From positions 384,188-448,187 of the forward strand of contig JAXLQW010000001.1 of the NCBI GenBank assembly GCA_046331385.1: a DNA stretch of 64,000 nucleotides, in the 5' to 3' direction. The first letter of the stretch is position 1. Every line of letters starts with the position of its first letter. Position numbers and translations under genes: made by a program. Source of the stretch: Thermoanaerobaculia bacterium. Lineage in GTDB: Bacteria; Acidobacteriota; Thermoanaerobaculia; Multivoradales; JAGPDF01. Positions 512 to 30,456 of the stretch are shown piece by piece. Under the pieces are notes generated by a model. The model was not told the origin of the DNA. It saw only the letters and a program-made list of their open reading frames with translations, and did not search any database.

Positions 512-1057
512 TCACGCTTCCGAAGGCTCCGGCGAGGCGGCGTTGCGCAGCTCCTCGAGGCCTGGGAAGCGCGCGTCGGGCCAGTGCTTCTCGAACGGAT
601 CGGGCTCGCGCGACGTGCCGCGGATGCGCCGGTAGAGGTCGCGCTGGCGCTGGGCTTGGAGAGCGCTGTCGGTGGCCAGGCGCTCGAACGGGCGCGGCAA
701 CTCGAACATGAACGCGAGCAGCAGGTCGAGATCCTCGCGGTCGAGCAGGTAGGGCTCGAGGGCACGCGTCAAGCCGCGACGAAAGACCGTCTCCCAAGCG
801 TAGATCGGGGTGTAGATGTTGGGTATCGGCGGCGAGGTGCGCTTGGCACGCAGGTATTTCTTGGCCGCGAGCCGCTGCAGCAGCGTCATGATCGTCTGGA
901 TGGTGCGCGGCGAGCTGGCGTCGCTCGCGTTCCAGTCGAGTCGCTGCTCGAGATACTCGAACACGTCGCGCGCGGTGCCCTGGCCGAGCTTGCACAACGC
1001 GCCGTAGAGCATGAGCTCGGTGGGCGCCAGCGGTTCCAGCTTGTCGAGCTTCGTCAT
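512..1057 (-). CDS. BlaI/MecI/CopY-family transcriptional regulator with C-terminal extension
   Basis: N-terminus LAPTELMLYGALCKLGQGTARDVFEYL...TIQTIMTLLQRLAAKKYL matches the penicillinase-repressor winged helix; SD-like GAGGAGA upstream on minus strand. Confidence 0.75.
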   Translation of the reverse strand: MTKLDKLEPLAPTELMLYGALCKLGQGTARDVFEYLEQRLDWNASDASSPRTIQTIMTLLQRLAAKKYLRAKRTSPPIPNIYTPIYAWETVFRRGLTRALEPYLLDREDLDLLLAFMFELPRPFERLATDSALQAQRQRDLYRRIRGTSREPDPFEKHWPDARFPGLEELRNAASPEPSEA

Positions 1058-1219
1058 CGGTCGTCTCCTCTCGGCACGGCGACCCGCCGCGGGTCGCTGT
1101 CCTCGTCCGCCCGGAGACTACCACCGGTTCGACCGTTGCGGTAGGGGGGCGGGAGCCGCGCCGCGGTCGACGATCGACGGCGGAGTGGGGGCATAGGAGA
1201 ATCCGATCGGAGGAGCGCG

Positions 1220-2044
1220 ATGGCCGAGTTGCTGGAGACCGCGAGACGGGCAGCGCGGGCGGGGGCGGAAGTCCTGCGTCGCAGCTTCCGCGACGAGCGC
1301 CTGCTGATCGAGACCAAGGCGAGGAACGACTTCGTCACTTCGGCCGATCGCGCCAGCGAGGCCGCGGTGGTGGCGGAGATCGTGAAGCGGCATCCGGGGC
1401 ATCGGATCCTCGCCGAAGAGGGCTCGAGCAACCCGGCGGCCGACGACGTTCTCGAGTGGGTCATCGATCCGCTCGACGGCACCACCAACTTCCTCCAGGG
1501 TCTGCCGGTCTTCGCCGTCTCGGTGGCGTGTCGCCGCGGCCACGAGGTCCTCGCCGGCGTGGTCATCGACCCCCTGCGCGGCGACGAATTCGCGGCCGAG
1601 CGCGGCGCCGGCGCCTACCTCGGCGATCGCCGTCTCGCGGCTTCGCCACGGCCCGGGCTCGACGGCGCCTTTCTCGCCACCGGCTATCCGTTCCGCGCCC
1701 AAGCGGCGCTCGATCTCTACCTCGCGGTCTTCCGCCGCGTCTTCCTGCGCGCGCGCGCGATCCGCCGCTGCGGCGCGGCGGCCCTCGATCTGGCCAACTG
1801 CGCGGCCGGCGTCTACGACGGCTTCTTCGAGTTTCGCCTCTCGCCGTGGGACATCGCGGCCGGAGCGCTGCTGCTCACGGAAGCCGGGGGCGCGATCTCG
1901 GACCTCGGCGGCGGCGAGCGCCACTGGAGCGGCGGCAACGTGCTCGCCGGCGGAGCCGCCGTCCACCGGGCGCTGGTGACCGAGGTCGGGCCGCTGGCGA
2001 GCGAGGAAGAGCTCGATCGACTGGTGCCGATCGGCGCCGGCTGA
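1220..2044 (+). CDS. suhB: Inositol monophosphatase family protein (SuhB)
   Basis: DFVTSADRASE, WVIDPLDGTTNF, GAAALDL and PWDIAAG motifs; GGAG RBS. Confidence 0.92.
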   Translation: MAELLETARRAARAGAEVLRRSFRDERLLIETKARNDFVTSADRASEAAVVAEIVKRHPGHRILAEEGSSNPAADDVLEWVIDPLDGTTNFLQGLPVFAVSVACRRGHEVLAGVVIDPLRGDEFAAERGAGAYLGDRRLAASPRPGLDGAFLATGYPFRAQAALDLYLAVFRRVFLRARAIRRCGAAALDLANCAAGVYDGFFEFRLSPWDIAAGALLLTEAGGAISDLGGGERHWSGGNVLAGGAAVHRALVTEVGPLASEEELDRLVPIGAG

Positions 2045-2060
2045 CCGGCGCGATCCGACG

Positions 2061-3104
2061 ATGAGCGACGAGTCGCGGCACGACACGATCGAGATCCAGA
2101 TCCATCCGATCGACGTGCGCGGTCGGGTCAGGTCGATGCGCGCCCGACGCCAGCAGCTGCGCTGGCTGCGCGTCCTGGCGGGCGCCTACTTGCTCTTCCT
2201 GGTCGCCGGGCTCGGCACCGCGCCGCGCGTCGTCGGCGGCCTGCTGCGCCACAGCGAGTACCGCATCCAGCTCGCGCGCCGCGGTCAGCAGGGCGAGCGC
2301 CTGCAGGCGCTGGTCGATCGACTGGCCGAGCTCGGCCGTCAGACGCGCGATCTCGAGCACCGGGTGGAGAAGATCCACGACCTCTACGGGTTGGCGCCCG
2401 AGCCGGCGATCGAGGACCTTCCTCCGGGGCCCGTCGCCGGCGAGCGTTCGATTTTCGCGGCGACGATCGAGCGTGGGGAGACTCTGCTCGCGGACGTCGG
2501 GCGGCGCTCGGCGCGGCTCGATCGTCAGCTCGGCCAGGTGCGCGAGTTCGAGGTGGCGCATCCCGAGGCGGCGCCGGCGCTCCCGGCGGCCCTGCCGCTC
2601 GAAGGAACGCGCTGGGTGCTCACCAGTCTCTTCGGTACGCGACGCAGCCCGTTCACCCGCGACCTCGAATTCCACACCGGCATCGATCTGGCTTCGCCGC
2701 TCGGCACCTCGGTGTTGGCCGCCGGCGCTGGCGCGGTGGTCTACGCCGGACCGGTGCCGGTCGCCAAGGCGAGCAGCTGGTGGCGTCTGGGAAACGTGGT
2801 CGTGGTGCGCCACGGCGATCGCTTCCTGTCGATCTACGGCCACTTGGATCGCATCCTGGTCGTGCCGGGAACGAAGGTGCGCCGCGGGCAGGCGATCGCC
2901 ACCGTCGGCAGCTCGGGCTGGTCGAGCGCCCCGCACCTCCATTTCGAGGTCTGGCAGCGGGTCGGCGGCGCGGGCTTCTCGCCGCTCGATCCGCGCGCCG
3001 CGATTCTCGATCGCCGATTCGGCCAGGAGGTTCCGGTCTCGCCGGCGGCGGCCGGAGAAGCCCCGGCCTTCGCGCCTCTGCCGCCGGCGTTCCTGCGCGG
3101 CTAG
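2061..3104 (+). CDS. M23 family metallopeptidase with N-terminal TM and coiled coil
   Basis: FHTGIDL (HxxxD), IYGHL and APHLHFEV (HxH) motifs. Confidence 0.9.
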   Translation: MSDESRHDTIEIQIHPIDVRGRVRSMRARRQQLRWLRVLAGAYLLFLVAGLGTAPRVVGGLLRHSEYRIQLARRGQQGERLQALVDRLAELGRQTRDLEHRVEKIHDLYGLAPEPAIEDLPPGPVAGERSIFAATIERGETLLADVGRRSARLDRQLGQVREFEVAHPEAAPALPAALPLEGTRWVLTSLFGTRRSPFTRDLEFHTGIDLASPLGTSVLAAGAGAVVYAGPVPVAKASSWWRLGNVVVVRHGDRFLSIYGHLDRILVVPGTKVRRGQAIATVGSSGWSSAPHLHFEVWQRVGGAGFSPLDPRAAILDRRFGQEVPVSPAAAGEAPAFAPLPPAFLRG

Positions 3105-6137: not shown

Positions 6138-7769
<1,632 letters not shown>

Positions 7770-18951: not shown

Positions 18952-19764
18952 ATGCCGCTGCCGCTCTACCAAGTCGATGCCTTCGCCGATCGACCGTTCT
19001 CCGGCAATCCGGCGGCGGTCTGCCTACTCGATCGGCCGCGCTCGCCGGAGTGGATGCAGGCGGTCGGGGCGGAGATGAACCTGGCCGCGACCGCGTTCCT
19101 GCTGCGCGAGGGCGAGCGCTACCGGTTGCGCTGGTTCACGCCGGCGGTCGAAGTGGCGCTCTGCGGCCACGCCACGCTCGCCTCGGCGCACGTTCTCTGG
19201 GAGCTCGGGGAGATCGCCGCGACGGCGCCGGCGCGGTTCGTGACCGAGAAGAGCGGCGAGCTCGTCTGCCGCAAGGCGAGCGCCGCCGCCAGGGAGGATT
19301 GGATCGAGATGGACTTTCCCATCCGCCCCGAGTCGCCGGCGAGCCCGCCGCCGGGGCTGGTGGAGGCACTCGGCGCGACCCCGGTCTACGTCGGCAAGAA
19401 CCTCTACGACTACTTCGTCGAGCTCGCCTCGGAGGCGGAGGTCCGTGCCCTCGCCCCGGATCACGTTCTGCTCGCCCGCCTGCCGGTACGCGGCGTGATC
19501 GTCACCGCCGCGGCCGAGCTCGGCAGCGACCACGACTTCGTCTCGCGCTTCTTCGCCCCCGGCTCGGGGATCGCCGAGGATCCGGCCACCGGCTCGGCGC
19601 ACTGCTGCCTGGCGCCCTTTTGGGCGGCGCGGCTCGGGCGCGACTCGCTGATCGGTTACCAAGCCTCGCGGCGCGGCGGCGTGGTGCGGGTGCGAGCGAT
19701 GGGCGAGCGGGTGCTGCTCGCCGGTCGCGCGCTCACCGTGCTGCGCGGCGAGCTCGACGCGTGA
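18952..19764 (+). CDS. PhzF family epimerase-like protein
   Basis: VDAFADRPFSGNPAAV, FTPAVEVALCGHATLA, SRFFAPGSGIAEDPATGSAH. Confidence 0.92.
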   Translation: MPLPLYQVDAFADRPFSGNPAAVCLLDRPRSPEWMQAVGAEMNLAATAFLLREGERYRLRWFTPAVEVALCGHATLASAHVLWELGEIAATAPARFVTEKSGELVCRKASAAAREDWIEMDFPIRPESPASPPPGLVEALGATPVYVGKNLYDYFVELASEAEVRALAPDHVLLARLPVRGVIVTAAAELGSDHDFVSRFFAPGSGIAEDPATGSAHCCLAPFWAARLGRDSLIGYQASRRGGVVRVRAMGERVLLAGRALTVLRGELDA

Positions 19765-20666
19765 AGCACGCCCGCGCCGCGCTGCTCGCCGCGGTCGCGC
19801 TGGCGATCGCTTGCCGGCCCGCTCCGGCGCCGGTGCTGCCGCCGGTGGCGATGCGCGACGTCCCGCCGCGGATCGGCCTGGCGCTCGGCGGCGGCGGGGC
19901 GCGCGGCTTCGCCCACGTCGGCGTGCTGCGCGTCTTCGAGCAGGAGAAGATCCCTCTCCACGTCGTGGTCGGCAGCTCGGTCGGCAGCCTGATCGGTGCG
20001 CTCTACGCCGACAGCGGCCGGGTGCTCGACGCCGAGTTCCTGGCGGCGGAGGTCGAGCACGACGACATCTTCGACTTCGGCGCGCTCGCCTTTTTCAGCG
20101 GCGGCCTGGCGCGCGGCGCCGGCATCGAGCGCTTCCTCGGCGAGCACCTGAAGCACCCGACGTTCGAGACCTTGCCGGTGCGTTTCGGTGCCGTGGCGAC
20201 CGAGCTCGCCACCGGGCGCACCGTGGTCTTCGAGCGCGGCTCGGTGGCGCAGGGGGTGCGCGCCTCCTGCGCCATCCCCGGCGTGTTCTCCCCGGTCGAG
20301 ATCGGCGGCACGGTCTATGTCGACGGCTCGGTCACCGATCCGGTCCCGGCGGATGCGGCGCGGGCGCGCGGCGCCGAGGTCGTGGTGGCGGTGGCGATCC
20401 CGTCGAGCGTGCCGAGCGACCTGCCGTCGACGCCGGTCGGAGTGGCGCTACGCGCCATCGGCCTGCTCGCCAACGCGGTGCAGGAGGCGCGCGCCGCCGA
20501 GGCCGACGTGGTGATCTCGCCCGAGGTCGGAGGGATCGCCTACGACGATTTCACCGCCAAGAAGCGGGCGATCGAGGCCGGGGAGGAAGCGGCGCGCAGG
20601 GCGCTGCCGGCGATCCGCGCCGCGATCGCCGCAAAGACGCGGCACGAGCCGATGCCGCCGGAATGA
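19761..20666 (+). CDS. Patatin-like phospholipase, probable lipoprotein
   Basis: GGGGARG, GSSVG (GxSxG), YVDGS; lipobox-like LAIAC; GTGA overlap with the PhzF gene. Confidence 0.88.
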   Translation: MKHARAALLAAVALAIACRPAPAPVLPPVAMRDVPPRIGLALGGGGARGFAHVGVLRVFEQEKIPLHVVVGSSVGSLIGALYADSGRVLDAEFLAAEVEHDDIFDFGALAFFSGGLARGAGIERFLGEHLKHPTFETLPVRFGAVATELATGRTVVFERGSVAQGVRASCAIPGVFSPVEIGGTVYVDGSVTDPVPADAARARGAEVVVAVAIPSSVPSDLPSTPVGVALRAIGLLANAVQEARAAEADVVISPEVGGIAYDDFTAKKRAIEAGEEAARRALPAIRAAIAAKTRHEPMPPE

Positions 20667-20704: not shown

Positions 20705-21538
20705 ATGGGCTGGCGGAGAACGACACGGATCTACGGGCGGCTGACGCGCGCCCTGGGGTACTCCTTCGTCGCCTATGGCGGCGCCCTGCTCAGCGGCTGG
20801 TTGCTGGCGCCCTGGCCGCGCGCGAGCGCGCGCTGGCAGATGCGCAGCTTCCAGTTCTGGTCGCGCGCTCTGGTGCGAGTCTTCGGCGTCCGCCTGACGG
20901 TCGTCGGCGAGCCGCCGCGCCCACCCTTCTTCCTGGTCGCGAACCACCTCTCGTACGTCGACATCGTGGTGCTCGGCACGCAGTTGCCGTGCGTTTTTGT
21001 CGCCAAGGCGGAGATCGACCGCTGGCCGGTCTTCGGCGCCATCTGTCGGGTGGTCAACACGATCTTCATCGACCGCAAGTTGAAGCGCGACGTGCCGCGC
21101 GCCATCGCGCTCATCCGCGAGGCGCTCGCGGTCGGCAAGGGGATCGTGGTCTTCGCCGAGAGCACTTCGAGCGCCGGCGCCGAGGTCATGCCGTTCCGCT
21201 CGCCGCTGCTCGACCTGCCGGTCAAGATGGGTCTGCCGGTGCACTACGCGGTGCTCGGCTACCGCACGCCGGAGTTCGCGCCGCCGGCCTTCTCGACCGT
21301 CTGCTGGTGGGGCAACGCGCCATTCGCGCCGCACGTCAAGGAATTCCTCGCCCTGCCGAGGGTCGAGGCCCGCCTGGTCTTCGGTGACCAGCCGGTGGCG
21401 ATCGCCGACCGCAAGCAGCTCGCCGAGCGACTGCGCAGCGAAGTCGCGGCGCGCTTCGAGCCGACGGTCGGCGCCGAGGAGCTCGCCAAGTACCGCCCGC
21501 CTTGGCGCGAAGACATCGACGAATTCGCCGGCGAGTGA
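20705..21538 (+). CDS. Lysophospholipid acyltransferase (PlsC/OlsA-like)
   Basis: NHLSYVD (HxxxxD), FVAKAEI, FIDR, FAESTSS. Confidence 0.88.
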   Translation: MGWRRTTRIYGRLTRALGYSFVAYGGALLSGWLLAPWPRASARWQMRSFQFWSRALVRVFGVRLTVVGEPPRPPFFLVANHLSYVDIVVLGTQLPCVFVAKAEIDRWPVFGAICRVVNTIFIDRKLKRDVPRAIALIREALAVGKGIVVFAESTSSAGAEVMPFRSPLLDLPVKMGLPVHYAVLGYRTPEFAPPAFSTVCWWGNAPFAPHVKEFLALPRVEARLVFGDQPVAIADRKQLAERLRSEVAARFEPTVGAEELAKYRPPWREDIDEFAGE

Positions 21539-21585: not shown

Positions 21586-22110
21586 AAGAAAGGCTCGGTT
21601 AGAGACCCTACGGTTCCATCCTCGCGAACCCTGGGCCGGCTCGATCCCAGCCGACACCAGCTCTCGCCTGGGAGTGTGGGCTCACCGCGCGCCCTCGTGA
21701 ACTGGCGGGTGGCTCGGCTGGGCGAGGCTGGAAGTGCGGGTTTCCTTTTTCCCCAGGGTGAGCTTTTCTTCGCAGGTTGCTGGCAGCTCGAGCTCAGCGG
21801 ACACCAGCTCTCGCCTGGGAGTGTGGGCTCACCCCGCGCCCTCGTGAACTGGCGGGCGGCTCGGCTGGGCGAGGATGGAAGTGCGGGCGTCTTTTTTCCC
21901 TAGGTGAGCTTTTCTTCGCAGGTTGCTGGCAGCTCGGCCTCAGCGGACACCAGCTCTCGCCTAGGAGTGTGGGCCTCTCTCGCGCCCTCGTGAACTGGCG
22001 GGCGGCTCGGCTGGGCGAAGCTGGAAGTGTGGGCCTCCTTTTCCCTAACCAGATCCTTTTCTTCTTTTTCTTGCTGTGTTTTCTTCTTTTCTTCTATCTC
22101 TACTGTTTCG
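21586..22110. repeat. Modular ~146-147 bp tandem repeat array, locus 1 (3 units), ending in a pyrimidine tract
   Basis: GACACCAGCTCTCGCC at 21653, 21800, 21946; GCCCTCGTGAACT at 21691, 21838, 21984; GGTGAGCTTTTCTTCGCAGG at 21757, 21903. Confidence 0.9.
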
Positions 22111-22132
22111 CCGACAGGGATCGGGTCTGGGG

Positions 22133-24703
22133 TCAGTCGAGGTATCGCCGTTTGAGGAGGCGGAGGAGCTCGCGCAGTGTCGTCGGGCGATGGCCGCTCT
22201 GGGCGTTTTCTTCACCGATCTCGAAGGCGAGGCGCCACTGCTCGAAGAGGGTCCGGTAGGCGGCGATCAGGCTCGCGCCGGGCTCGTAGATGTGGGTCGC
22301 TTCGGAGGTCACGCCGTTGAGCTCGAGAATCTTCAGGTTGCGCCCCTGCTGGAAGTCCTCGGTCGAGGGCACGCGCACGTCGTAGCGCCCGAAGAAGAAG
22401 CCCTCGAAGCCGCGGCTGATTTCGTCGATCCGACGGCGCAGCGCCTCGGTGGCGAGCGCCCGGCCGTCGCGGAAGATCGTGCCGCGGCAGTGGTTGCCGA
22501 TCTCGACCAGCTGCACGGGAACGTCGGACGCCGGGACCTCGCTCAGGCGGTGCGAGTTCTTCTCGAGATAGAACCTCGCCATGCACACCGCACGCTGGTC
22601 GGCGAGAATCAACTCCTCGAGCGTTCGCACGCCGTCGCCGCGCACAACCGGGAACTGCTTGCGCGTGATCGAGAAGATGCGGCCTTCGGCCTCCCGCGGG
22701 CGGCGCACGTAGAAGACGCCGAACTCCTCGCCGGGGACGTACTCCTGCAGAATCACCGGGCCCGCGTTCTCCTCGAGGTGCAGGCGGATCTCGTCGTGGC
22801 TACGCGCCACCGCCACGCCCGTGCCGCGCTCGCCGACGTCCGGCTTGAGCACCACCGGCAGCTCGAGAGCCAAGTCGGTCATCATCGCGCGCGCGGCGGC
22901 CAGGCGCGACTCGAGATCGGCGTGCGGCTCGAGCCGGGCGTAACGCGCCAGCGCCTCGGGGGACGCGGAGAGTCCGGCGAGGATGCCGCTCTTCGACTCC
23001 TCGACGAAACCGCCGGCGGGGATCGCCGGATTGGCGGCGGTGAAGACCGTCAGACTCTTGTGGCGCCAAGCGAGGCGGAGGATCTGGGCGAAGACGGGGA
23101 TCTGGAACAACCAGAGCGGCCAGAACTCCCAGCGCCGCAAGCGCTCGACCTTCGACCGCAGCATCCGGCGGCCCCGCCAGGTGCAGGCCGGGATCACCAG
23201 GTGGAAGAGAACGAGCAGGAGCACGAGCAGCAGGGCGATGCCCGGCAGGGCCCAGCGTTCGTAGGTCGCGAGCAGCCCGAGGAGCGTCTTGCCCGCGAGC
23301 GCCGAGAGTCCGACCAGGATCGGCGTCCAGAGCACCGCCGCGAGCAGGAAAGCGAGGAGCAACATCGGCAGGCGCACGTGGAGCACGCCGGCGGCGAAGA
23401 AGAGCGGCAGGCGGCTGCCGGGGATGAAGCGCGAGATCAGGATGACCTTCATCCCTTCGCGGCGGAACCACTCCGAGCTCGCCTCGAGGGTCGCCGGCTT
23501 GACCATCCACTTGAACGGCGCGCGCGCCAACGCCGGGCGCCCGAGCCAGCGTCCGGCGGCCACCAGCAGCAGATCGCCGACCACGATGCCCACCAGACAG
23601 GCGAGCGTCGCCTCGGGAAAGGCGAGGGTGCCATGTGAGACCAGCAGACCGCCGGCGAGGCAGGCCAGGTCCTCGGCGAGAAAAGTGGCGAGCGCCAGCA
23701 GGGACAGCAGGATCAGCAGGGTCACGCCGCGCGCCCGCGGCGGACGGATCTTGTCGAGCGCGAGCGCCGAGCGCGCCTGGCGGTCGCTCGGGGCGGTGGC
23801 GCGGGTGCGCGCCGCGCCCGAATCGACCGCCGCGAGGAAGGCGGAGATGCGCGTGGCCGCGAGGCCCGGTTGCTGGAAGAAGAGGAAGTGCCCGCCGGGG
23901 ACGATCTCGAGCTCCGCCTGCGGCACGATGCGCGCGTGCTCGTGCGCGGCGGCGACCGGCACGAGTCCGTCGCGTTCGCCGTGCAGGATGAGCGTCGGCC
24001 CGCCCCAGGCGCCGAGCAGACCGCGCAGCGGTCTTTGATCGGCGGCGGTGAAATTGCGCGCGTAGCCGAGATCGAGCGGCTGGCGGTCGAGCAGGCCGAA
24101 GTGAGGCACGAGCTGGTGCAGCCCCCAGACCAAGCCATACTGCACGTCGTAGAGCAGGTGGTTCAGGCGGTAGTCGCCCAGCAGCTCGAGCTCCTGGACG
24201 CCGATTGCCGAGAAGAGGGTGAGCGAGCGCACCCGCTCCGGATGACTTCCGGCGAGCTCGATCGCCGCGCCGCCTCCCTGGCTCACCGCCACCAGGTCGA
24301 CCGGCCCCGCGACCGGCGGCTCGACCGCGGCGAGGAAGTCGGCGAGCGACTCGGCCTCGGCGCGAAACGAGGCGTCCGGAAGGCCGCGACTCGAGGCGCC
24401 GAACTCCGGCAGGTCGGGGGCCAGCACGCGGCGGTCGCGGGCGAGCTCGCGGGCGAGATCGAGGACCGAGGCGCCGCTGCCGGGCGCGCCGTGGAGCAGC
24501 AAGACCGACGGACGAGACGAGAGCGAACCGAGGTCGCGGTAGGCGAGTCGCATCCGGTGCTCCGGCCGCGCCCCGCGGCCACGCTCGGGAAGCTCGAGAG
24601 TGCGCTGGTCGGCGGCCGGCGCGTTCCCGGGCCAGAAGGCGGTCGTGAGGTGCGAGGCCGCGAGCAGCACCATCCAGGCGAGCGCGAAACGGTGGCGGCG
24701 CAT
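22133..24703 (-). CDS. Fusion: alpha/beta hydrolase + DedA/VTT membrane domain + ATP-grasp ligase
   Basis: LLHGAPGS, AVSQGG, HGERDGLVP, GGHF (hydrolase); FLAEDLAC...LISRFIPGSR (DedA); VLKPDVGERG, LQEYVPG, GDGVRTLEELI, ILELNG (ATP-grasp). Confidence 0.85.
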   Translation of the reverse strand: MRRHRFALAWMVLLAASHLTTAFWPGNAPAADQRTLELPERGRGARPEHRMRLAYRDLGSLSSRPSVLLLHGAPGSGASVLDLARELARDRRVLAPDLPEFGASSRGLPDASFRAEAESLADFLAAVEPPVAGPVDLVAVSQGGGAAIELAGSHPERVRSLTLFSAIGVQELELLGDYRLNHLLYDVQYGLVWGLHQLVPHFGLLDRQPLDLGYARNFTAADQRPLRGLLGAWGGPTLILHGERDGLVPVAAAHEHARIVPQAELEIVPGGHFLFFQQPGLAATRISAFLAAVDSGAARTRATAPSDRQARSALALDKIRPPRARGVTLLILLSLLALATFLAEDLACLAGGLLVSHGTLAFPEATLACLVGIVVGDLLLVAAGRWLGRPALARAPFKWMVKPATLEASSEWFRREGMKVILISRFIPGSRLPLFFAAGVLHVRLPMLLLAFLLAAVLWTPILVGLSALAGKTLLGLLATYERWALPGIALLLVLLLVLFHLVIPACTWRGRRMLRSKVERLRRWEFWPLWLFQIPVFAQILRLAWRHKSLTVFTAANPAIPAGGFVEESKSGILAGLSASPEALARYARLEPHADLESRLAAARAMMTDLALELPVVLKPDVGERGTGVAVARSHDEIRLHLEENAGPVILQEYVPGEEFGVFYVRRPREAEGRIFSITRKQFPVVRGDGVRTLEELILADQRAVCMARFYLEKNSHRLSEVPASDVPVQLVEIGNHCRGTIFRDGRALATEALRRRIDEISRGFEGFFFGRYDVRVPSTEDFQQGRNLKILELNGVTSEATHIYEPGASLIAAYRTLFEQWRLAFEIGEENAQSGHRPTTLRELLRLLKRRYLD

Positions 24704-24711
24704 GGACGCTT

Positions 24712-25446
24712 CTAGGCGGCGCGCGCGATCGCGATGCGGTGCGCGCGGGCGGCGGTGCACGGCGAATCGCCCTGGTAGCGCATCTCGATCCGCTCCGGCC
24801 CGACCTCGACCTCGCAGAACGACACCGTACGGGCGTCGTCGCGGTGCATGCAGACCGACCAGGCGGAGGGGAAAAGGCCGTGGTCGCGGTGGACGGCGCG
24901 CAGCCCGGCGACCGAAGCCAGCGGTTGGGCGCGCCAGCGCTCCCAGATCGGCCGGCGCTCACGGTCGGCGCGCTCGTCGCCGAGCGAGGACGAGCAGAGG
25001 AGCCCGGCTTCGATCGGCAGGACCGCGGACGTCGCCCGCGAGCCGTCCCAGGCGCGCAGCAGCGCCGGTTCGCCGCCCGGCGCCATGGCCACGAGGGTGA
25101 AAGGGGCGAGGTCGGCGAGGTCGAGCTCGTCGAAGGCGGCCATGGCACCCCGCGGCCCGTCCGCGTCGATCAGGCCGGGAATCAGCTCGCCCCGCGAGCG
25201 CGGCGCCGGCGGCAGGGGCCGCGTGGCGTTGCGGTTGAGCAGGCAGAGGAGGAGGCCGGTCTCGGCCGCCGCGATCCAAGTGCCGCCCGAGGCGCCGTCG
25301 ACCGGCGCGAGGTAGCCAATGCCGGTTGCCGACTGCGCCAGCCGGGGCGGCGACGCCGCGGTGCGGCGCCCGAGCTCGTCACGATTGAAGAGGAGGTGGA
25401 GGCGTGCGGCCGGAGCGGGCGAGGTCAGCCAGGAAGCGGTGCACAT
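24712..25446 (-). CDS. NRDE/TANGO2 family protein
   Basis: Begins MCT (N-terminal Cys), FNRDE motif, GGTWI, RSRG, CMHR...RTVS. Confidence 0.88.
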   Translation of the reverse strand: MCTASWLTSPAPAARLHLLFNRDELGRRTAASPPRLAQSATGIGYLAPVDGASGGTWIAAAETGLLLCLLNRNATRPLPPAPRSRGELIPGLIDADGPRGAMAAFDELDLADLAPFTLVAMAPGGEPALLRAWDGSRATSAVLPIEAGLLCSSSLGDERADRERRPIWERWRAQPLASVAGLRAVHRDHGLFPSAWSVCMHRDDARTVSFCEVEVGPERIEMRYQGDSPCTAARAHRIAIARAA

Positions 25447-25964
25447 GTGGCCGCTTGCTGCCAGTGGCGCAGGGTCGAAGGGGCGACGCCGAACTCCGGA
25501 CCGGCGTCGATACCCTGCGCGAGGAGCAGCTGACCGATCAGGGCGTAGTGGTGCACCGTGTGCGAGAGGAGGAACTGCAGCTCGCGCTTGACCGTCGAGC
25601 GGCTCCACTGGTCGCTCGCCTCGTCGCCGCAATCGAGCCGCACCTCGAGGGAGCGGCCGAACCCGGCCTCGTCGACTCGTCCGAGCCCCTCGACGAGCTC
25701 CCGAATGCGGGCGACGGCGGCCTGCACCTCGACCTCGAGGGCCGCCTCGCGCGGGCGCGACTCGTAGTCGACCCGGCCCTCGTCGAGACCGGCGAGGAAG
25801 CAGGAGTAGTGCTCCAGGATGTGCCGCAGGTGGGGGCCGATCCCGCGCGCCCGCTCGCGTACCAGAACCAGGGAATAGGCCTCGCCGGGGATGCGGCCGA
25901 GCAGCTCGCGGCCCTCCTCGAGGAGACGGATGTTCTCGTGGATCACGTCGTGCTTGGCGGCCAT
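25425..25964 (-). CDS. DinB family protein
   Basis: IGPHLRHILEHY and RELQFLLSHTVHHYALI (three-His DinB pattern), FGVAPST; overlaps the NRDE start by 22 nt. Confidence 0.85.
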   Translation of the reverse strand: MAAKHDVIHENIRLLEEGRELLGRIPGEAYSLVLVRERARGIGPHLRHILEHYSCFLAGLDEGRVDYESRPREAALEVEVQAAVARIRELVEGLGRVDEAGFGRSLEVRLDCGDEASDQWSRSTVKRELQFLLSHTVHHYALIGQLLLAQGIDAGPEFGVAPSTLRHWQQAATCAPLPG

Positions 25965-26061
25965 CCTATGAATCCTAATACAGAGCGCCTAAGCTATCCT
26001 AGATGCGCCACTTATGAGACGGGTTTCCGACCTCGACAGTACGCGACCGCGGGCCCTTTGG

Positions 26062-27366
26062 ATGGCTCGCCGGGGAATCGCCGTTCTGTTCGCCGCGACA
26101 ACGGTCTTCGCTTCCGGGGCGTCGGCCTCGAGCCACGGTGAAATCGTCCGCCTGCAGGTGCGCTCGATCATCCAGCCGATCGCGGCCGAATACCTGAAGG
26201 ACGGGCTGGAGGAGGCCGACCGCGACGGCGCGGCGCTGGTGGTGGTCGAGCTCGACACGCCGGGCGGCCTCCTGCCCTCGACCCGCGAGATGTCGACCGC
26301 GATGCTCGCGGCGCGCACGCCGGTGGCGGTCTGGGTCGCGCCGAGCGGCGCGCAGGCGGCCTCGGCCGGCTTCTTTCTCCTGCAGGCGGCCGACTTCGCG
26401 GTCATGGCGCCGGCGACCAACACCGGCGCTGCGCACCCGGTGGGCGCCGGGGGCGAGACGATCGAAGGCGTGCTGGGCGAGAAGGTCGAGCAGGACGCCG
26501 CCGCCACGATCCGCACCCTCGCCGACCGCCGCGGCCGCAACGTCGAGCTCGCCGAAGCCGCGGTGGTCAAGAGCCGCTCGTTCACCGCCGAGGAGGCTCT
26601 GGCGGCGCACCTGATCGACGCCATCGCCCCGGACTTCCCGGGCCTGGTGGCGGCGCTCGACGGGCGGACGATCGAGAAGCCGAAGGGCGAGCCGCGCACC
26701 CTGCGGCTCGCCGGCGCCACCGTGCGCGCGATCGAGATGGCGCCGTTGCGCCGTTTCCTGTCGCGGATCGCCTCGCCCGACTTCGCCTCGATCCTGCTCA
26801 CCCTCGGCCTGCTCGGCCTCTACTTCGAGTTCTCTCACCCGGGCGCCGTGCTGCCGGGGGTGGTGGGTGGGATCTGCCTGCTGCTCGCCTTCTTCGCCCT
26901 CTCGGTCCTGCCGGTCTCCTACGTCGGCGTGGCGCTCGTGGGTTTGGCGATCGCGATGTTCGTCGCCGAGGTCAAGGTCACCAGTTACGGCGCGCTCACT
27001 TTGGGCGGTATCATCGCGCTCGTCCTGGGGCTCGCCATGCTCTTCAAGAGCTCGGAGCCGGCGCTGCAGGTGAGCCGCGGCCTGATCGCGGCGCTGGCGA
27101 TGACGGCCCTGCTGGTGGCGGGGACGGTGCTGCTGGTGGCGGTTCGTTCCCGCCGTCTCCCCATCCAGAGCGGGCGCGAGGCGCTAGTCGGCGCGCGCGC
27201 GACGGCGCGTACCGAGATCGCGCCGCACGGCAAGGTGTTCGTGGCCGGAGAGTGGTGGAACGCGGTGGCCGAGGGTCCACCGGTGGCGGCCGGCAGCGAA
27301 GTAGTGGTAACGGCGGTCCAGGGCTTGGTGCTCACGGTGCGCGCGACGGCGCACGAAGGGAGTTAG
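26062..27366 (+). CDS. nfeD: NfeD family membrane-bound serine protease
   Basis: [31 protein letters not shown]; C-terminal OB fold ([12 protein letters not shown]); alternative ATG at 26014. Confidence 0.9.
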
Positions 27367-27370
27367 AGCG

Positions 27371-28132
27371 ATGCAGTTCGTGGCGTTTCCGTTCTTCCTG
27401 TTCCTCATCCTGATCTTCGTGGTCTCCCGCTGGCTCAACATCCTGCGCGAGTACGAGCGCGCGGTGGTCTTCCGCGTCGGCCGCCTGCTGCCGGAGCCGA
27501 AGGGGCCCGGCTGGGTCTTCATCTTCTGGCCGTTCGACACCATGGTGCGGGTGTCGATGCGCACCGTGGTCCTCGACGTGCCGCCGCAGGACGTGATTAC
27601 CCGCGACAACGTCTCGGTGAAGGTCAACGCGGTGGTCTATTTCCGCGTCGTCGACCCGAATCGGGCGGTGACCTCGGTCGAGAATTACCTTTACGCCACC
27701 AGCCAGCTGTCGCAGACGACCTTGCGCTCGGTGCTCGGCCAGGCCGAGCTCGACGAGCTGCTCTCCGAACGCGAGAAGCTCAACGAGCGCCTGCAGGAGA
27801 TCATCGACCAGCACACCGATCCATGGGGGATCAAGGTCTCGATGGTCGAAGTCAAGGCGGTCGACCTGCCGCAGGAGATGCAGCGCGCGATGGCCAAACA
27901 GGCCGAGGCCGAGCGCGAGAAGCGGGCCAAGATCGTGCACGCCGAGGGCGAGAAGCAGGCCTCGAAGGCGCTCGGCGAGGCGGCCGACATCATCTCGGTC
28001 AATCCGGTGACTCTCCAGCTGCGCTACCTGCAGACGCTGACCGAGATCGCCACCGAGAAGAACTCGACGATCGTCTTCCCGTTGCCGGTCGACGTGCTGC
28101 GCTCCTTCCTGGACCGCGTGCGCAAGGACTGA
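27371..28132 (+). CDS. SPFH/stomatin (slipin) family protein
   Basis: [43 protein letters not shown]; canonical NfeD partner. Confidence 0.95.
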
Positions 28133-28145
28133 AGGAGCCAGCGCA

Positions 28146-28949
28146 GTGGCCGAGAGCGCCGAATCCCACGAGCCGAGCTACTACGAAGTCGCGCTCACCA
28201 ACCGTCAGGTAGTGATCGCCTTCGTGGTGCTGCTCGCCTGCCTGCTGGCGGCTTTCCTGTCCGGAGTCTGGCTCGGCCGCGGCGCGCATCGGCCCGTGCC
28301 GCCGCCGACGGTCGCCGCCACGCCGGCCCCCGAGCCTCCGCTCGAGCAGCTCTCCTTCTTCTCCAAGAGCGAGCAGAAGCCTGAACCCGCCGCCGCGCGG
28401 GCGGCGCCGCGCGACGCGGCGCCGGGTTCGGCTCCGGGCGAGCTCGCACCCGCGGCGGTCCCCGGCACGAGTCTCGCTCCCATGATCGGCGGCGCTCCGG
28501 CCGTCGGGGCGCGCGGCGCAAATCCGTCGGGGACCGCGAGCCCGGCGTCCGCTCCCGCTGCGCCGCCGGTCGCCGCCCGGCCGCCATCCGCCGCGAAACC
28601 CGCGACCGCGTCGGCGGAGACGACCCCTATCGCGGCCTCCAAGGGCGCCGCCTCCAAACCGGCGCCGGCGCCCGCCGCGTCGACCGCCAAGTCGACGAGC
28701 GCGACACCGGTGGCCGCCAGGCTCTGGGTCCAGGTCTACTCGTCGACCAACGGCGCGCGGGCGCGCGAGATCGCGGCACAGCTCGGCAAGGCCGGCTTCA
28801 CGGTGCAGATGACCCAGATCGACAAGGCCGGGACCGCGAACTACCGCGTGCGCGTCGGCCCCTACGGCGCGCGCTCGGATGCGAACGACGCCTCGCAGCG
28901 TCTGCGGCGCAACTACCACCTCGACACCTGGGTGACCGACACCCCCTGA
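28146..28949 (+). CDS. SPOR domain-containing protein
   Basis: N-terminal TM, Pro/Ala-rich linker, C-terminal WVQVYS...YRVRVGPY. Confidence 0.85.
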   Translation: MAESAESHEPSYYEVALTNRQVVIAFVVLLACLLAAFLSGVWLGRGAHRPVPPPTVAATPAPEPPLEQLSFFSKSEQKPEPAAARAAPRDAAPGSAPGELAPAAVPGTSLAPMIGGAPAVGARGANPSGTASPASAPAAPPVAARPPSAAKPATASAETTPIAASKGAASKPAPAPAASTAKSTSATPVAARLWVQVYSSTNGARAREIAAQLGKAGFTVQMTQIDKAGTANYRVRVGPYGARSDANDASQRLRRNYHLDTWVTDTP

Positions 28950-28953
28950 CGAC

Positions 28954-30456
28954 GTGCGGCCGCGATGGCTGGGCCCACGCCTCGCCGCGCTCGCGGCCGG
29001 CGCGCTCTGGGGGGCGTGCTTCGCCAAGCTCCAGCCGCCTCTCCTGCCGTTCGTCGCCCTCGCGCCGCTCTTCCTGTTCCTCGAGCGCGACGACGCCGGC
29101 TGGCAGGGCTTCGCGCACGGCTTCGGCGCTTGGGCGGTCGGTCTATGGTGGATCGCGCCGACGCTCGCCATCTACGGCGACTTGCCCTGGTACCTGGCGC
29201 TCGCGGGGCTCGCGCTGCTGGCGGCGATCCTGGCTCTCTACACCGCGGCCTTCGCGCTCGCCGGACGCCGCTTCTGGCGTCGCGGCGGCTGGGTCGCCTG
29301 GGCCGCGTCGCCGGCGCTCTGGGTGCTGCTCGAGTGGTTGCGCGAGCGGCTGCTGACCGGGTTTCCCTGGAATCAGGCGGCCTACGCCTGGACCGATTTC
29401 CCCGGCGCGCTGGCGCTCGCGGCCTGGATCGGCGCCGCCGGCGTTTCGTGGATCGGAGTCTTGCCGGCGCTCGGCGTGGCGCTCTCGATCCGCCGGCGGA
29501 GCATCTCGCCGGCCGCGGTGGCGATCCTGGTCGCTCTGCTCGCCTTCGCCCTCGGCGACCGGTTCGCGGCGCCGCGTCCGGCCCGCATGGCCGAGCCACG
29601 GGCGGTGCGCATCGTCCAGCCGAACACCCCGGACCGCCCGCTCTACGACGCCGAAGCGTCGGCCAGGGACTATCTACGGCTGCTGCGCATGTCGAGCGAA
29701 GCCTGCGCCCCCGGTGCGCTCGTCGTCTGGCCCGAGAGCGCCGCCTGGCCCGCGGCCTGGGAAGAGGACCCGAACCTGCGCGCCGACGTGGCCAAGCTGC
29801 TCGATCGCGGTTGTGCGGTGTTGCTCAACTCGCCGCGCTCGGCGGGCGAGCGGGTCTTCAATTCGCTCTACCTGCTGAGCGCGGGATCGCTGCCGGAGAT
29901 CGCCGACAAGCGGCACCTGGTGCCGTTCGGCGAGTACGTGCCGCTCGGTCGTGCCATCCCGTGGCTCGGCAAGCTGGCGCGCAACGCGGGCGATTTCTCG
30001 GCGGCCGAGGAGATCCGCCTCCTGCCCTGGCGCGGCGAGAGCCTGGCGCCAGCGGTCTGCTACGAGGTCGTCTTCGCGTCGGAGGTGGCGGCGGCGGTAC
30101 GCGCCGGCGCGACGGCGATCGTCACCGTCACCAACGACGGCTGGTACGGCGACACCGCCGCCCCTTGGCAGCACTTCCGCGCCGCCCGTTTCCGCGCCGC
30201 CGAGTCCCACCGCTGGCTGCTGCGGGCGGCGATCACCGGGGTCTCGGGAGTCATCGGCCCCGACGGGGCGGTGGTCGGCCAGATCGGGGTGGGCGAGTCG
30301 GGCGTGCTCTACGCCACCTTCGAAGGCCGCCGGGAGCTGACCCCCTTCGTGCGCGCCCCCTGGGTCGTCCCGGCCATGGCGCTCCTCCTCGTCACCGTGG
30401 CGGAGGTCGACGCGCGATGGCGGCGGCGGCCGGCGGTGAGCCCGCCGCCGGCCTGA
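28954..30456 (+). CDS. lnt: Apolipoprotein N-acyltransferase
   Basis: TGFPW, IVQPN, VVWPESA, DKRHLVPFGEYVP, VCYEVVF, TNDGWYG, RAAITGVS. Confidence 0.93.
   Translation: MRPRWLGPRLAALAAGALWGACFAKLQPPLLPFVALAPLFLFLERDDAGWQGFAHGFGAWAVGLWWIAPTLAIYGDLPWYLALAGLALLAAILALYTAAFALAGRRFWRRGGWVAWAASPALWVLLEWLRERLLTGFPWNQAAYAWTDFPGALALAAWIGAAGVSWIGVLPALGVALSIRRRSISPAAVAILVALLAFALGDRFAAPRPARMAEPRAVRIVQPNTPDRPLYDAEASARDYLRLLRMSSEACAPGALVVWPESAAWPAAWEEDPNLRADVAKLLDRGCAVLLNSPRSAGERVFNSLYLLSAGSLPEIADKRHLVPFGEYVPLGRAIPWLGKLARNAGDFSAAEEIRLLPWRGESLAPAVCYEVVFASEVAAAVRAGATAIVTVTNDGWYGDTAAPWQHFRAARFRAAESHRWLLRAAITGVSGVIGPDGAVVGQIGVGESGVLYATFEGRRELTPFVRAPWVVPAMALLLVTVAEVDARWRRRPAVSPPPA

Follow-up and report, generated by a model that had tools for sequence, protein, structure and literature searches.

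The reverse strand of the 64,000-nt stretch analyzed here (positions 384,188 to 448,187 of contig JAXLQW010000001.1 from a Thermoanaerobaculia bacterium; hereafter the window; G+C content 72%) carries an operon of three genes, encoding in order a DinB-fold protein, a member of the NRDE/TANGO2 family and a fusion of an alpha/beta-hydrolase, a DedA membrane domain and an ATP-grasp domain (Table 1). A preliminary description of this DNA had called the three genes tightly coupled, with a 22-nt overlap and an 8-nt gap, and direct reading of the coordinates and junctions bears this out. The DinB-like gene ends in ...ACA TGT GCA CCG CTT CCT GGC TGA, overlapping the NRDE start ATG TGC ACC by 22 nt, and the NRDE stop codon TAG is followed by 8 nt (aagcgtcc) and then by the ATG of the fusion gene. 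The 856-aa form that begins at this ATG agrees with the N-termini of homologues, and an 875-aa form beginning at a GTG does not; the exact 856-aa form is also present in a public protein collection (P0001). A scan for promoters and terminators gave nothing useful.

Table 1. Positions in the window of the operon genes, the segments of the fusion protein and the convergent OlsA-like gene
Feature	Coordinates	Strand	Remarks
DinB-fold gene	25425..25964	-	179 aa; first gene of the operon
NRDE/TANGO2 gene	24712..25446	-	244 aa; ATG at 25446; protein starts M-C-T
Triple-fusion gene	22133..24703	-	856 aa; ATG at 24703; stop codon included
N-terminal transmembrane helix, residues 2-23	24635..24700	-	AlphaFold2 (AF2) helix; Ser17 invariant
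Alpha/beta-hydrolase domain, residues ~34-300	23804..24604	-	Pfam PF00561; Ser141 (AVSQG), Asp245, His272; predicted periplasmic
DedA/VTT membrane domain, residues ~320-506	23186..23746	-	Pfam PF09335, AF2, hydropathy, charge census
Interfacial helical segment, residues 509-576	22976..23179	-	RWEFWP...FTAANPAIPAGGF.ESK; conserved, partly hydrophobic
ATP-grasp core, residues 577-856	22136..22975	-	K620, R773, D775, E794, N796; GDGVRTLEELI insert
OlsA-like (PlsC-family) candidate lyso-aminolipid O-acyltransferase gene	20705..21538	+	Convergent with the fusion gene

Architecture, topology and spread of the fusion protein

Pfam and profile matches agree with the 856-aa hydrolase-DedA-ATP-grasp fusion that had been read from the sequence, including its intact Ser/Asp/His triad. 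The hydrolase domain matches PF00561 (Abhydrolase_1; 3.8e-25, 89.4 bits against a cut-off of 25.8), and Ser141, Asp245 and His272 are invariant in an alignment of 90 homologues, which is the basis for all residue invariance given below for the fusion. The nucleophile elbow reads A-V-S-Q-G in the window and G-F-S-M-G in most relatives. Top Foldseek matches of this domain are esterases and lipases, including the human monoacylglycerol lipase ABHD6 and the membrane phospholipase A PlaF (6i8w), which is anchored at its N-terminus. The membrane domain matches PF09335 (VTT; 6.1e-14, 53 bits against a cut-off of 33.9), and its best NCBIfam match is UptA (NF052604; 1.8e-14, 54.3 bits); the cut-off of 250 for that family is not reached, so that, in contrast to UptA/PetA transporters, the domain is not a UptA equivalog.

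The ATP-grasp domain is seen by Pfam only below threshold (RimK, 0.0058, 16.7 bits versus 21; ATP-grasp_3, 17.1 bits versus 23.2). A profile built from 50 C-terminal homologue domains and run against solved structures matched 7ta5, annotated as a glutathione synthase (1.7e-8), a D-Ala-D-Ala ligase (1.6e-6), cyanophycin synthetase (CphA; 2.8e-6), GshAB (2.2e-5) and a RimK-domain protein (1.3e-4), and residues 629-718 of the fusion match the NCBIfam cyanophycin synthetase model at 7.6e-7. The GDG..TLEELI insert had been singled out as typical of the GshAB/cyanophycin-synthetase branch; in our alignment the family's GDGxxTLxxLI insert, with the consensus vGDGkstleeLi, corresponds to IGDGRSTIYDLI of 7ta5, and its E-L-N to the E-I-N of the same structure. 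K620, E660, R773, D775, E794 and N796 are invariant. A loss of catalytic residues had been named as a possible weakness of the assignment, and the residues are kept throughout; we take K620, R-x-D and E-x-N to be the counterparts of the catalytic residues of DdlB-type ATP-grasp enzymes. By its profile matches, the domain belongs to the branch formed by the cyanophycin-synthetase G domain, GshAB and RimK, with which it has in common the GDGxxT..LI insert and the K, R-x-D and E-x-N residues.

It differs from these best profile relatives in being tethered to DedA, and in that conserved membrane-interface helices replace the N-terminal substrate domain. This interfacial segment stands where ATP-grasp enzymes usually have that domain, and it contains ten invariant residues (R521, E526, W528, P536, N558, P559, G565, E569, S570 and K571). 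It is also kept in stand-alone ATP-grasp homologues of ~375 aa (query coverage 98-99%).

To place the domains relative to the membrane, we compared the AF2 model of the fusion (predicted local distance difference test (pLDDT) 90.1, predicted template modelling score 0.68) with TMEM41B, whose topology was determined by cysteine accessibility: an N-terminal transmembrane helix, re-entrant loop 1, a transmembrane helix, a cytosolic region, re-entrant loop 2, a transmembrane helix and a C-terminal transmembrane helix, with both ends cytosolic (Okawa et al.). In the model, helix 2-23 is followed by the hydrolase, a short helix pair (326-342/344-356) with E344-D345 at its turn, a long helix (362-387), a second short pair (419-426/431-440) and two long helices (445-480 and 482-506). 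With the two short pairs as re-entrant loops 1 (326-356) and 2 (419-440), AF2 helices and charge census give the TMEM41B order, and the domain resembles the DedA superfamily (UptA/PetA transporters, TMEM41B/VMP1 scramblases) in its above-threshold VTT match and, as in TMEM41B, in having two predicted re-entrant loops and four transmembrane helices. The N-terminal tail has a family mean of 3.7 K+R, compared with 1.5 for the stretch that follows helix 1; loop 388-418, predicted to be cytoplasmic, and residues 507-526 each have 6.7. We equate the helix at residues 2-23 with the N-terminal transmembrane helix of TMEM41B, which lies ahead of its re-entrant loop 1. In DedA relatives with two domains or standing alone, re-entrant loop 1 is the first element, and the tail is short and uncharged. 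Because element order and charges follow the TMEM41B scheme, the hydrolase is predicted to be inserted in the periplasmic loop between helix 1 and re-entrant loop 1, and the ATP-grasp domain to be cytoplasmic.

The fusion is not an assembly artefact, an explanation that the preliminary description had left for checking. A word-indexed protein search returned more than 2,240 significant matches, and among the 120 matches listed, lengths are 817-912 aa, query coverage is at least 90% and identity 46-54%; these 120 are annotated as 'alpha/beta fold hydrolase' or 'DedA' only. The window sequence was found in wastewater metagenomes, and a strain variant came from a farm metagenome of a separate study, where a 2,236-bp contig covers positions 21989-24222, including both domain junctions, with substitutions only and no indel within the open reading frame. 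Thousands of full-length homologues and this independent contig across both junctions rule out a chimeric assembly.

In a scan with one genome per species, at least 584 genomes encode a relative of the fusion, spread over roughly ten phyla. Carriers include Acidobacteriota, Gemmatimonadota, Verrucomicrobiota, Planctomycetota, KSB1, Calditrichota, Desulfobacterales, Rhodothermia/Balneolales (among them the cultured Fodinibius salsisoli), Chloroflexota and Gammaproteobacteria. Shorter relatives exist as DedA::ATP-grasp proteins of ~550 aa and as stand-alone ATP-grasp proteins of ~375 aa, and the ATP-grasp part alone yields 1,163 distinct 50%-identity clusters at E <= 1e-30 in an exhaustive HMMER search. 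Judged from its sequence, the fusion is a widespread membrane enzyme that combines a serine hydrolase, a DedA domain and an ATP-grasp domain. We know of no DedA protein bearing enzyme domains at both ends, and a literature search likewise found none; the search returned no description of the hydrolase-DedA-ATP-grasp combination, nor of aminolipids combined with DedA.

Aminolipid acyltransferase genes beside the fusion

We next asked which genes accompany the fusion elsewhere, using tblastn with the window proteins and unsupervised clustering of all flanking open reading frames in 80 related loci (L001-L080). By tblastn, most of the 80 loci have DinB-like, NRDE and PlsC-type genes immediately upstream of the fusion and on its strand; the three window genes are co-conserved elsewhere, a point that the preliminary description had set as a test. 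The clustering recovers these same three neighbours and one further conserved gene, encoding an OlsB-like GNAT protein. This protein matches PF13444 (Acetyltransf_5) at 1.9e-28, and its best NCBIfam match is OlsB, the ornithine N-alpha-acyltransferase, at 1e-39; OlsB is the best NCBIfam match for 42/42 OlsB-like neighbours scanned. The commonest gene order is OlsB-OlsA-DinB-(NRDE)-fusion.

A hidden Markov model (HMM) census gave the frequency of each partner in fused loci with at least 5 kb of upstream sequence (n = 57) and in independent loci where the parts are split (n = 9). OlsB-like genes are present in 41/57 fused loci (72%) and in all nine split loci, OlsA-like genes in 37/57 (65%) and 4/9, DinB-like genes in 41/57 and 8/9, NRDE genes in 26/57 and 8/9, and a Rieske/ferric-reductase membrane protein in 14/57 and 5/9. 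Shorter and split arrangements keep similar company: DinB-NRDE-DedA::ATP-grasp with a convergent OlsB-like gene (L081, L087), OlsB-OlsA-DinB-NRDE-DedA::ATP-grasp (L085), a fully split YHS-DoxX-DinB-DedA-NRDE-ATP-grasp series with an OlsB-like gene alongside (L083, L086, L091). In L089 and L090 a convergent Esterase-Rieske/FRD-OlsB-OlsA operon is present. The constant core is the pair of DedA and ATP-grasp, mostly beside an OlsB-like gene; the hydrolase, NRDE and DinB-like proteins are frequent but optional. Since the same parts occur fused or split in the same company, we argue that they act on one substrate. The three-gene operon that was initially described is real, then, but it is one form of a larger and more modular system whose OlsB- and OlsA-like partners had been missed.

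In the window, one of these partners lies outside the operon, beyond the coordinates first considered. The convergent OlsA-like gene encodes a protein that matches PF01553 (7.3e-19), has OlsA (NF052553) as its best NCBIfam match (5.7e-36; 124 bits, under the cut-off of 300) and scores 349 bits (9.5e-106) against an HMM built from OlsA-like genes that are linked to the operon in related loci. The same convergent arrangement with the fusion or its parts is seen in L089 and L090, and the OlsA-like gene is part of the system. Directly upstream of it, on the same strand, a gene at ~19761-20666 encodes a phospholipase of the patatin type (Pfam 5.8e-32), whose N-terminus resembles that of a lipoprotein (…AVALAIAC). 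This gene occupies the place expected for OlsB, and none of the 91 related loci has a homologue. On the other side of the operon, upstream of the DinB-like gene, a divergent block at 26014-30456 (NfeD, SPFH/Band 7, (SPOR), Lnt) is syntenic with L081 and L087; because those loci share the NfeD-SPFH-Lnt block but have the hydrolase-less form, the hydrolase domain has been either gained or lost within one lineage.

The conserved neighbours also bear on a role in cell-wall synthesis, in which a UptA-like DedA domain would transport undecaprenyl phosphate and a Ddl/Mur-like ligase would act on a polyprenyl-linked intermediate. UptA as the best NCBIfam match of the DedA part and D-Ala-D-Ala ligases among the structural matches would fit such a system. 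We nevertheless regard it as very unlikely: the UptA score of 54 bits is far under the cut-off, no mur, pbp or glycosyltransferase genes recur nearby, and the conserved partners are aminolipid acyltransferases.

A proposed module for aminolipid modification

Aminolipids are major phosphorus-free membrane lipids, and few of their head-group modifications have known genes. The preliminary description had envisaged a membrane-associated pathway that ligates, hydrolyses and exports an amino-acid, thiol or lipid conjugate. That general scheme holds, and we narrow the substrate to a lipid because the conserved neighbours are OlsB- and OlsA-like aminolipid acyltransferases. Across hundreds of species of bacteria the fusion stands beside genes for the synthesis of amino-acid lipids, and it therefore most likely modifies and moves those lipids. 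We accordingly propose, with a probability of about 0.5, that the genes form an accessory module of an aminolipid pathway (N-acyl-amino-acid, ornithine-lipid-like) and provide head-group ligation, DedA-mediated flipping and periplasmic trimming.

The proposed sequence would begin, as in the OlsB/OlsA pathway of ornithine-lipid synthesis, whose gene families share an operon in most relatives, with an OlsB-family N-acyltransferase making an N-(3-hydroxyacyl) amino acid, to which the OlsA-like O-acyltransferase (20705-21538 in the window) would attach a second acyl chain. The cytoplasmic ATP-grasp domain may then phosphorylate the alpha-carboxylate left free on the lipid head group and join it to an amine (an amino acid or a compound resembling taurine). 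Cyanophycin synthetase, GshAB and RimK convert the C-terminal alpha-carboxylate of a peptide-like molecule to an acyl phosphate, to which the amine of an amino acid is added. We propose an equivalent reaction at the head group because an N-acyl-amino-acid lipid offers an alpha-carboxylate at the membrane, and because interface helices here replace the soluble substrate domain. The DedA domain would carry the product to the outer leaflet, where the periplasmic hydrolase would act on the lipid: it may cleave off an acyl chain held by an ester bond, or take away what the ligase had attached.

Head-group amidation of this kind has a biochemical precedent. The transfer of taurine to the carboxyl group of ornithine lipid, which gives cerilipin, is ATP-dependent, and its enzyme and gene are unknown (PMC12971839, a 2026 review); the amidation proposed here is the reported chemistry. 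Cerilipin is produced by Gluconobacter. The known modifiers of ornithine lipids differ from the present proteins: the hydroxylases OlsC, OlsD and OlsE and the methyltransferase OlsG lie outside the ATP-grasp, DedA, alpha/beta-hydrolase, DinB and NRDE families. A more specific version, in which the DedA and ATP-grasp core, whether or not a hydrolase is fused to it, is a tRNA-independent head-group remodeller producing dipeptide- or taurine-type aminolipids and NRDE is an N-acyl-amino-acid amidase or transacylase, has a lower probability, and we advance it tentatively.

Several points weigh against the aminolipid proposal as a whole. First, the OlsB-like proteins score ~135-150 bits against equivalog cut-offs of 320-350, and the OlsA-like protein 124 against 300; because of these low scores, the amino acid may not be ornithine. 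Second, the adjacent OlsB-like gene is missing in 16/57 well-flanked fused loci, and an HMM search in all six frames across the entire 64 kb found no OlsB-like gene. Third, we know of no ATP-grasp enzyme with a lipid substrate. Finally, the topology that separates the ligase from the hydrolase is a prediction.

The second of these points could be taken to favor a tRNA-independent counterpart of MprF, in which the ATP-grasp domain decorates phosphatidylglycerol (PG), phosphatidylethanolamine or cardiolipin, DedA flips the product and the periplasmic hydrolase removes the decoration, with OlsB and OlsA nearby as mere clustering of lipid genes. The patatin-like phospholipase that adjoins the OlsA-like gene in the window would suit this reading. 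The arrangement of a cytoplasmic synthase, a flippase and a periplasmic hydrolase also parallels MprF and its periplasmic aminoacyl-PG hydrolase (PA0919/AhyD type), in which a head-group enzyme is fused to a flippase and an alpha/beta-hydrolase works on the outer face. The likeness does not extend to sequence: neither Pfam nor NCBIfam finds a tRNA-dependent aminoacyl-PG synthase domain of the MprF type in the fusion, ATP-grasp replaces aminoacyl-tRNA chemistry, DedA replaces the flippase domain, and one chain holds all three activities. The likely substrate is also an aminolipid rather than PG. We consider the phospholipid alternative unlikely, given that the OlsB-like gene is adjacent in 72% of fused and in all nine split loci, usually within the same operon and in a fixed order, that flank clustering finds no recurring phospholipid-synthesis genes, and that relatives in this ATP-grasp branch amidate alpha-carboxylates, which phospholipid head groups other than phosphatidylserine lack.

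The OlsA-like genes speak to a different alternative, that of a secreted N-acyl-peptide surfactant or signal, for which the ATP-grasp domain would extend the OlsB-like product to an N-acyl dipeptide, DedA would export it and the hydrolase would mature it. The linkage to OlsB and the ATP-grasp chemistry fit such a product equally well, and where the OlsA-like gene is missing, as in 5/9 split loci, a single-chain N-acyl amino acid may be the substrate. The 65% of fused loci with an OlsA-like gene point instead to two-chain membrane lipids. Characterised DedA proteins move lipids between leaflets, with none known to us that exports from the cell, and flank clustering finds no recurring outer-membrane export component. 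A secreted product accordingly strikes us as improbable.

Aminolipid synthesis includes a further alpha/beta-hydrolase with which the fusion might be compared by description: OlsI, an O-acyltransferase of this fold that works on aminolipids in the planctomycete OlsH/OlsI pathway (PMC12493201; PMC12971839). OlsI replaces OlsA, whereas here OlsA-like genes accompany the hydrolase-bearing fusions (37/57 loci) no less often than they accompany the hydrolase-less forms (4/9), and the hydrolase is predicted to lie in the periplasm, apart from acyl-acyl carrier protein and acyl-CoA. A role as an OlsI-like substitute for OlsA is not supported.

Under the aminolipid proposal, the fusion is a candidate for the ATP-dependent amidation of aminolipid carboxylates, an activity known since the 1970s without a gene. 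In the more specific version, the core would include an ATP-grasp enzyme that takes a membrane lipid as carboxylate substrate, the first of its kind, and would supply the missing enzyme class for cerilipin-like amidation. The fusion would also be a DedA domain joined to an enzyme on each face of the membrane, and could in that way reveal the cargo of DedA proteins. We found no published account of this system, which is very widespread and lends itself to experiment.

The NRDE/TANGO2 and DinB-fold proteins

The middle gene of the operon had been read as an NRDE gene with an N-terminal Cys, and this reading stands. The 244-aa protein matches PF05742 (TANGO2) at 8.2e-10 (39.7 bits, cut-off 22.6), and among 32 NRDE orthologues C2, R22, D23 and E24 are invariant and N21 is nearly so. 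Its profile matches human TANGO2 (8sv7, 9bwa) at 2e-5 with the NRDE motif aligned. By these sequence criteria it is a clear member of the NRDE/TANGO2 family and Cys-Ntn-hydrolase-like, sharing Cys2 and the N-R-D-E motif with the human protein; it differs from the latter in being a bacterial protein in an operon with genes for N-acyl-amino-acid lipids. From its crystal structure, TANGO2 is described as a Cys-Ntn hydrolase near bile-salt hydrolase, acid ceramidase and NAAA, with substrate unknown (PMC13044924, a 2026 paper). Within the proposed aminolipid module, the NRDE protein probably edits or recycles the N-acyl amide bond, as an amidase or transacylase. A homologue in a defined lipid context makes the TANGO2 substrate question approachable experimentally in bacteria, and, if the more specific version of the proposal is true, it would give a first concrete substrate class for a family whose human member causes metabolic disease.

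The DinB label given to the first gene holds for its fold and fails for the Pfam sequence model. The DinB_2 match is below the cut-off (E 0.014, 16.3 bits versus 24.8), and a sequence profile of the DinB-like family run against the PDB gave no match. The AF2 model (pLDDT 91.9) is more informative: its 28 best Foldseek matches in the PDB are all of DinB/YfiT type, with probabilities of 0.97-1.00 and target TM-scores up to 0.80, the top ones (3gor, 3dka and 6iz2) at 1.00. On the strength of this model, membership of the 179-aa protein in the DinB/YfiT fold is confirmed at the fold level. The window protein scores 217 bits against an HMM of the DinB-like neighbours in related loci. H48, H135, H138 and H139 are invariant among 35 orthologues, and H48/H135/H139 form a putative metal site with the H...HxxxH pattern of the four-helix-bundle DinB/YfiT fold. 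We suggest that this three-His protein would serve as a metal-dependent tailoring enzyme in the proposed aminolipid module.

Structural matches of the DinB fold include thiol S-transferases (8f5v, 5wk0) and the DinB domain of EgtB, which raises the thiol option of the preliminary description: an ergothioneine- or bacillithiol-like pathway in which DinB would be an S-transferase working with a ligase and an Ntn amidase, by analogy with EgtA, EgtB and EgtC, and DedA would export the low-molecular-weight thiol conjugate. The DoxX and YHS genes that recur in some split loci might also be read this way. However, no neighbourhood examined contains EgtD, an FGE domain, BshA-C or MshA-D, and DinB and NRDE are dispensable in many loci while the OlsB-like linkage persists. 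We found no support for a thiol substrate and hold it to be highly improbable.

A membrane protein that fuses a Rieske [2Fe-2S] domain to a ferric-reductase-type heme-b domain recurs in L083, L086, L089, L090 and L091 and in 16 of L001-L080, often with DoxX and YHS. It may be the redox partner of the three-His DinB-like protein, and would perhaps serve it in the tailoring step.

Two features of the DinB-like C-terminus were considered separately. Many DinB-like proteins end in C-A-x, which we considered as a lipidation signal and rejected, as the ending is an out-of-frame reading of the overlapping NRDE start, ATG-TGC-ACN. It is present, for example, in the window (25425-25446) and in L002, L003, L005 and L011, and is absent where NRDE is absent. 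Residues 158-170 (25440-25490) lie in the C-terminal helix, where an FGVAPSTL motif is strongly conserved; the motif is atypical for DinB proteins, and its G159, S163 and T164 are invariant. A MerR helix-turn-helix assignment for this region (FGVAPSTLRHW) was not accepted, the Pfam match being 13 residues long and below threshold.

Three further observations concern the surroundings of these loci. In L010, from a metagenome-assembled genome of Desulfobacterales, a divergent neighbour of 669 aa (644-2653, minus strand) clusters with the OlsB-like group and, by this sequence grouping, may be an OlsF-like bifunctional synthase. In L089, an inserted zeta-toxin/PhdYeFM antitoxin pair (6680-7678) separates the DedA::ATP-grasp gene from the OlsA-like gene convergent with it. 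In the window itself, 2.8 copies of a 146-bp tandem unit (21639-22047, 90% matches) take up the space between the fusion gene and the convergent OlsA-like gene, and read depth over them is elevated (run X1), consistent with a dispersed repeat.

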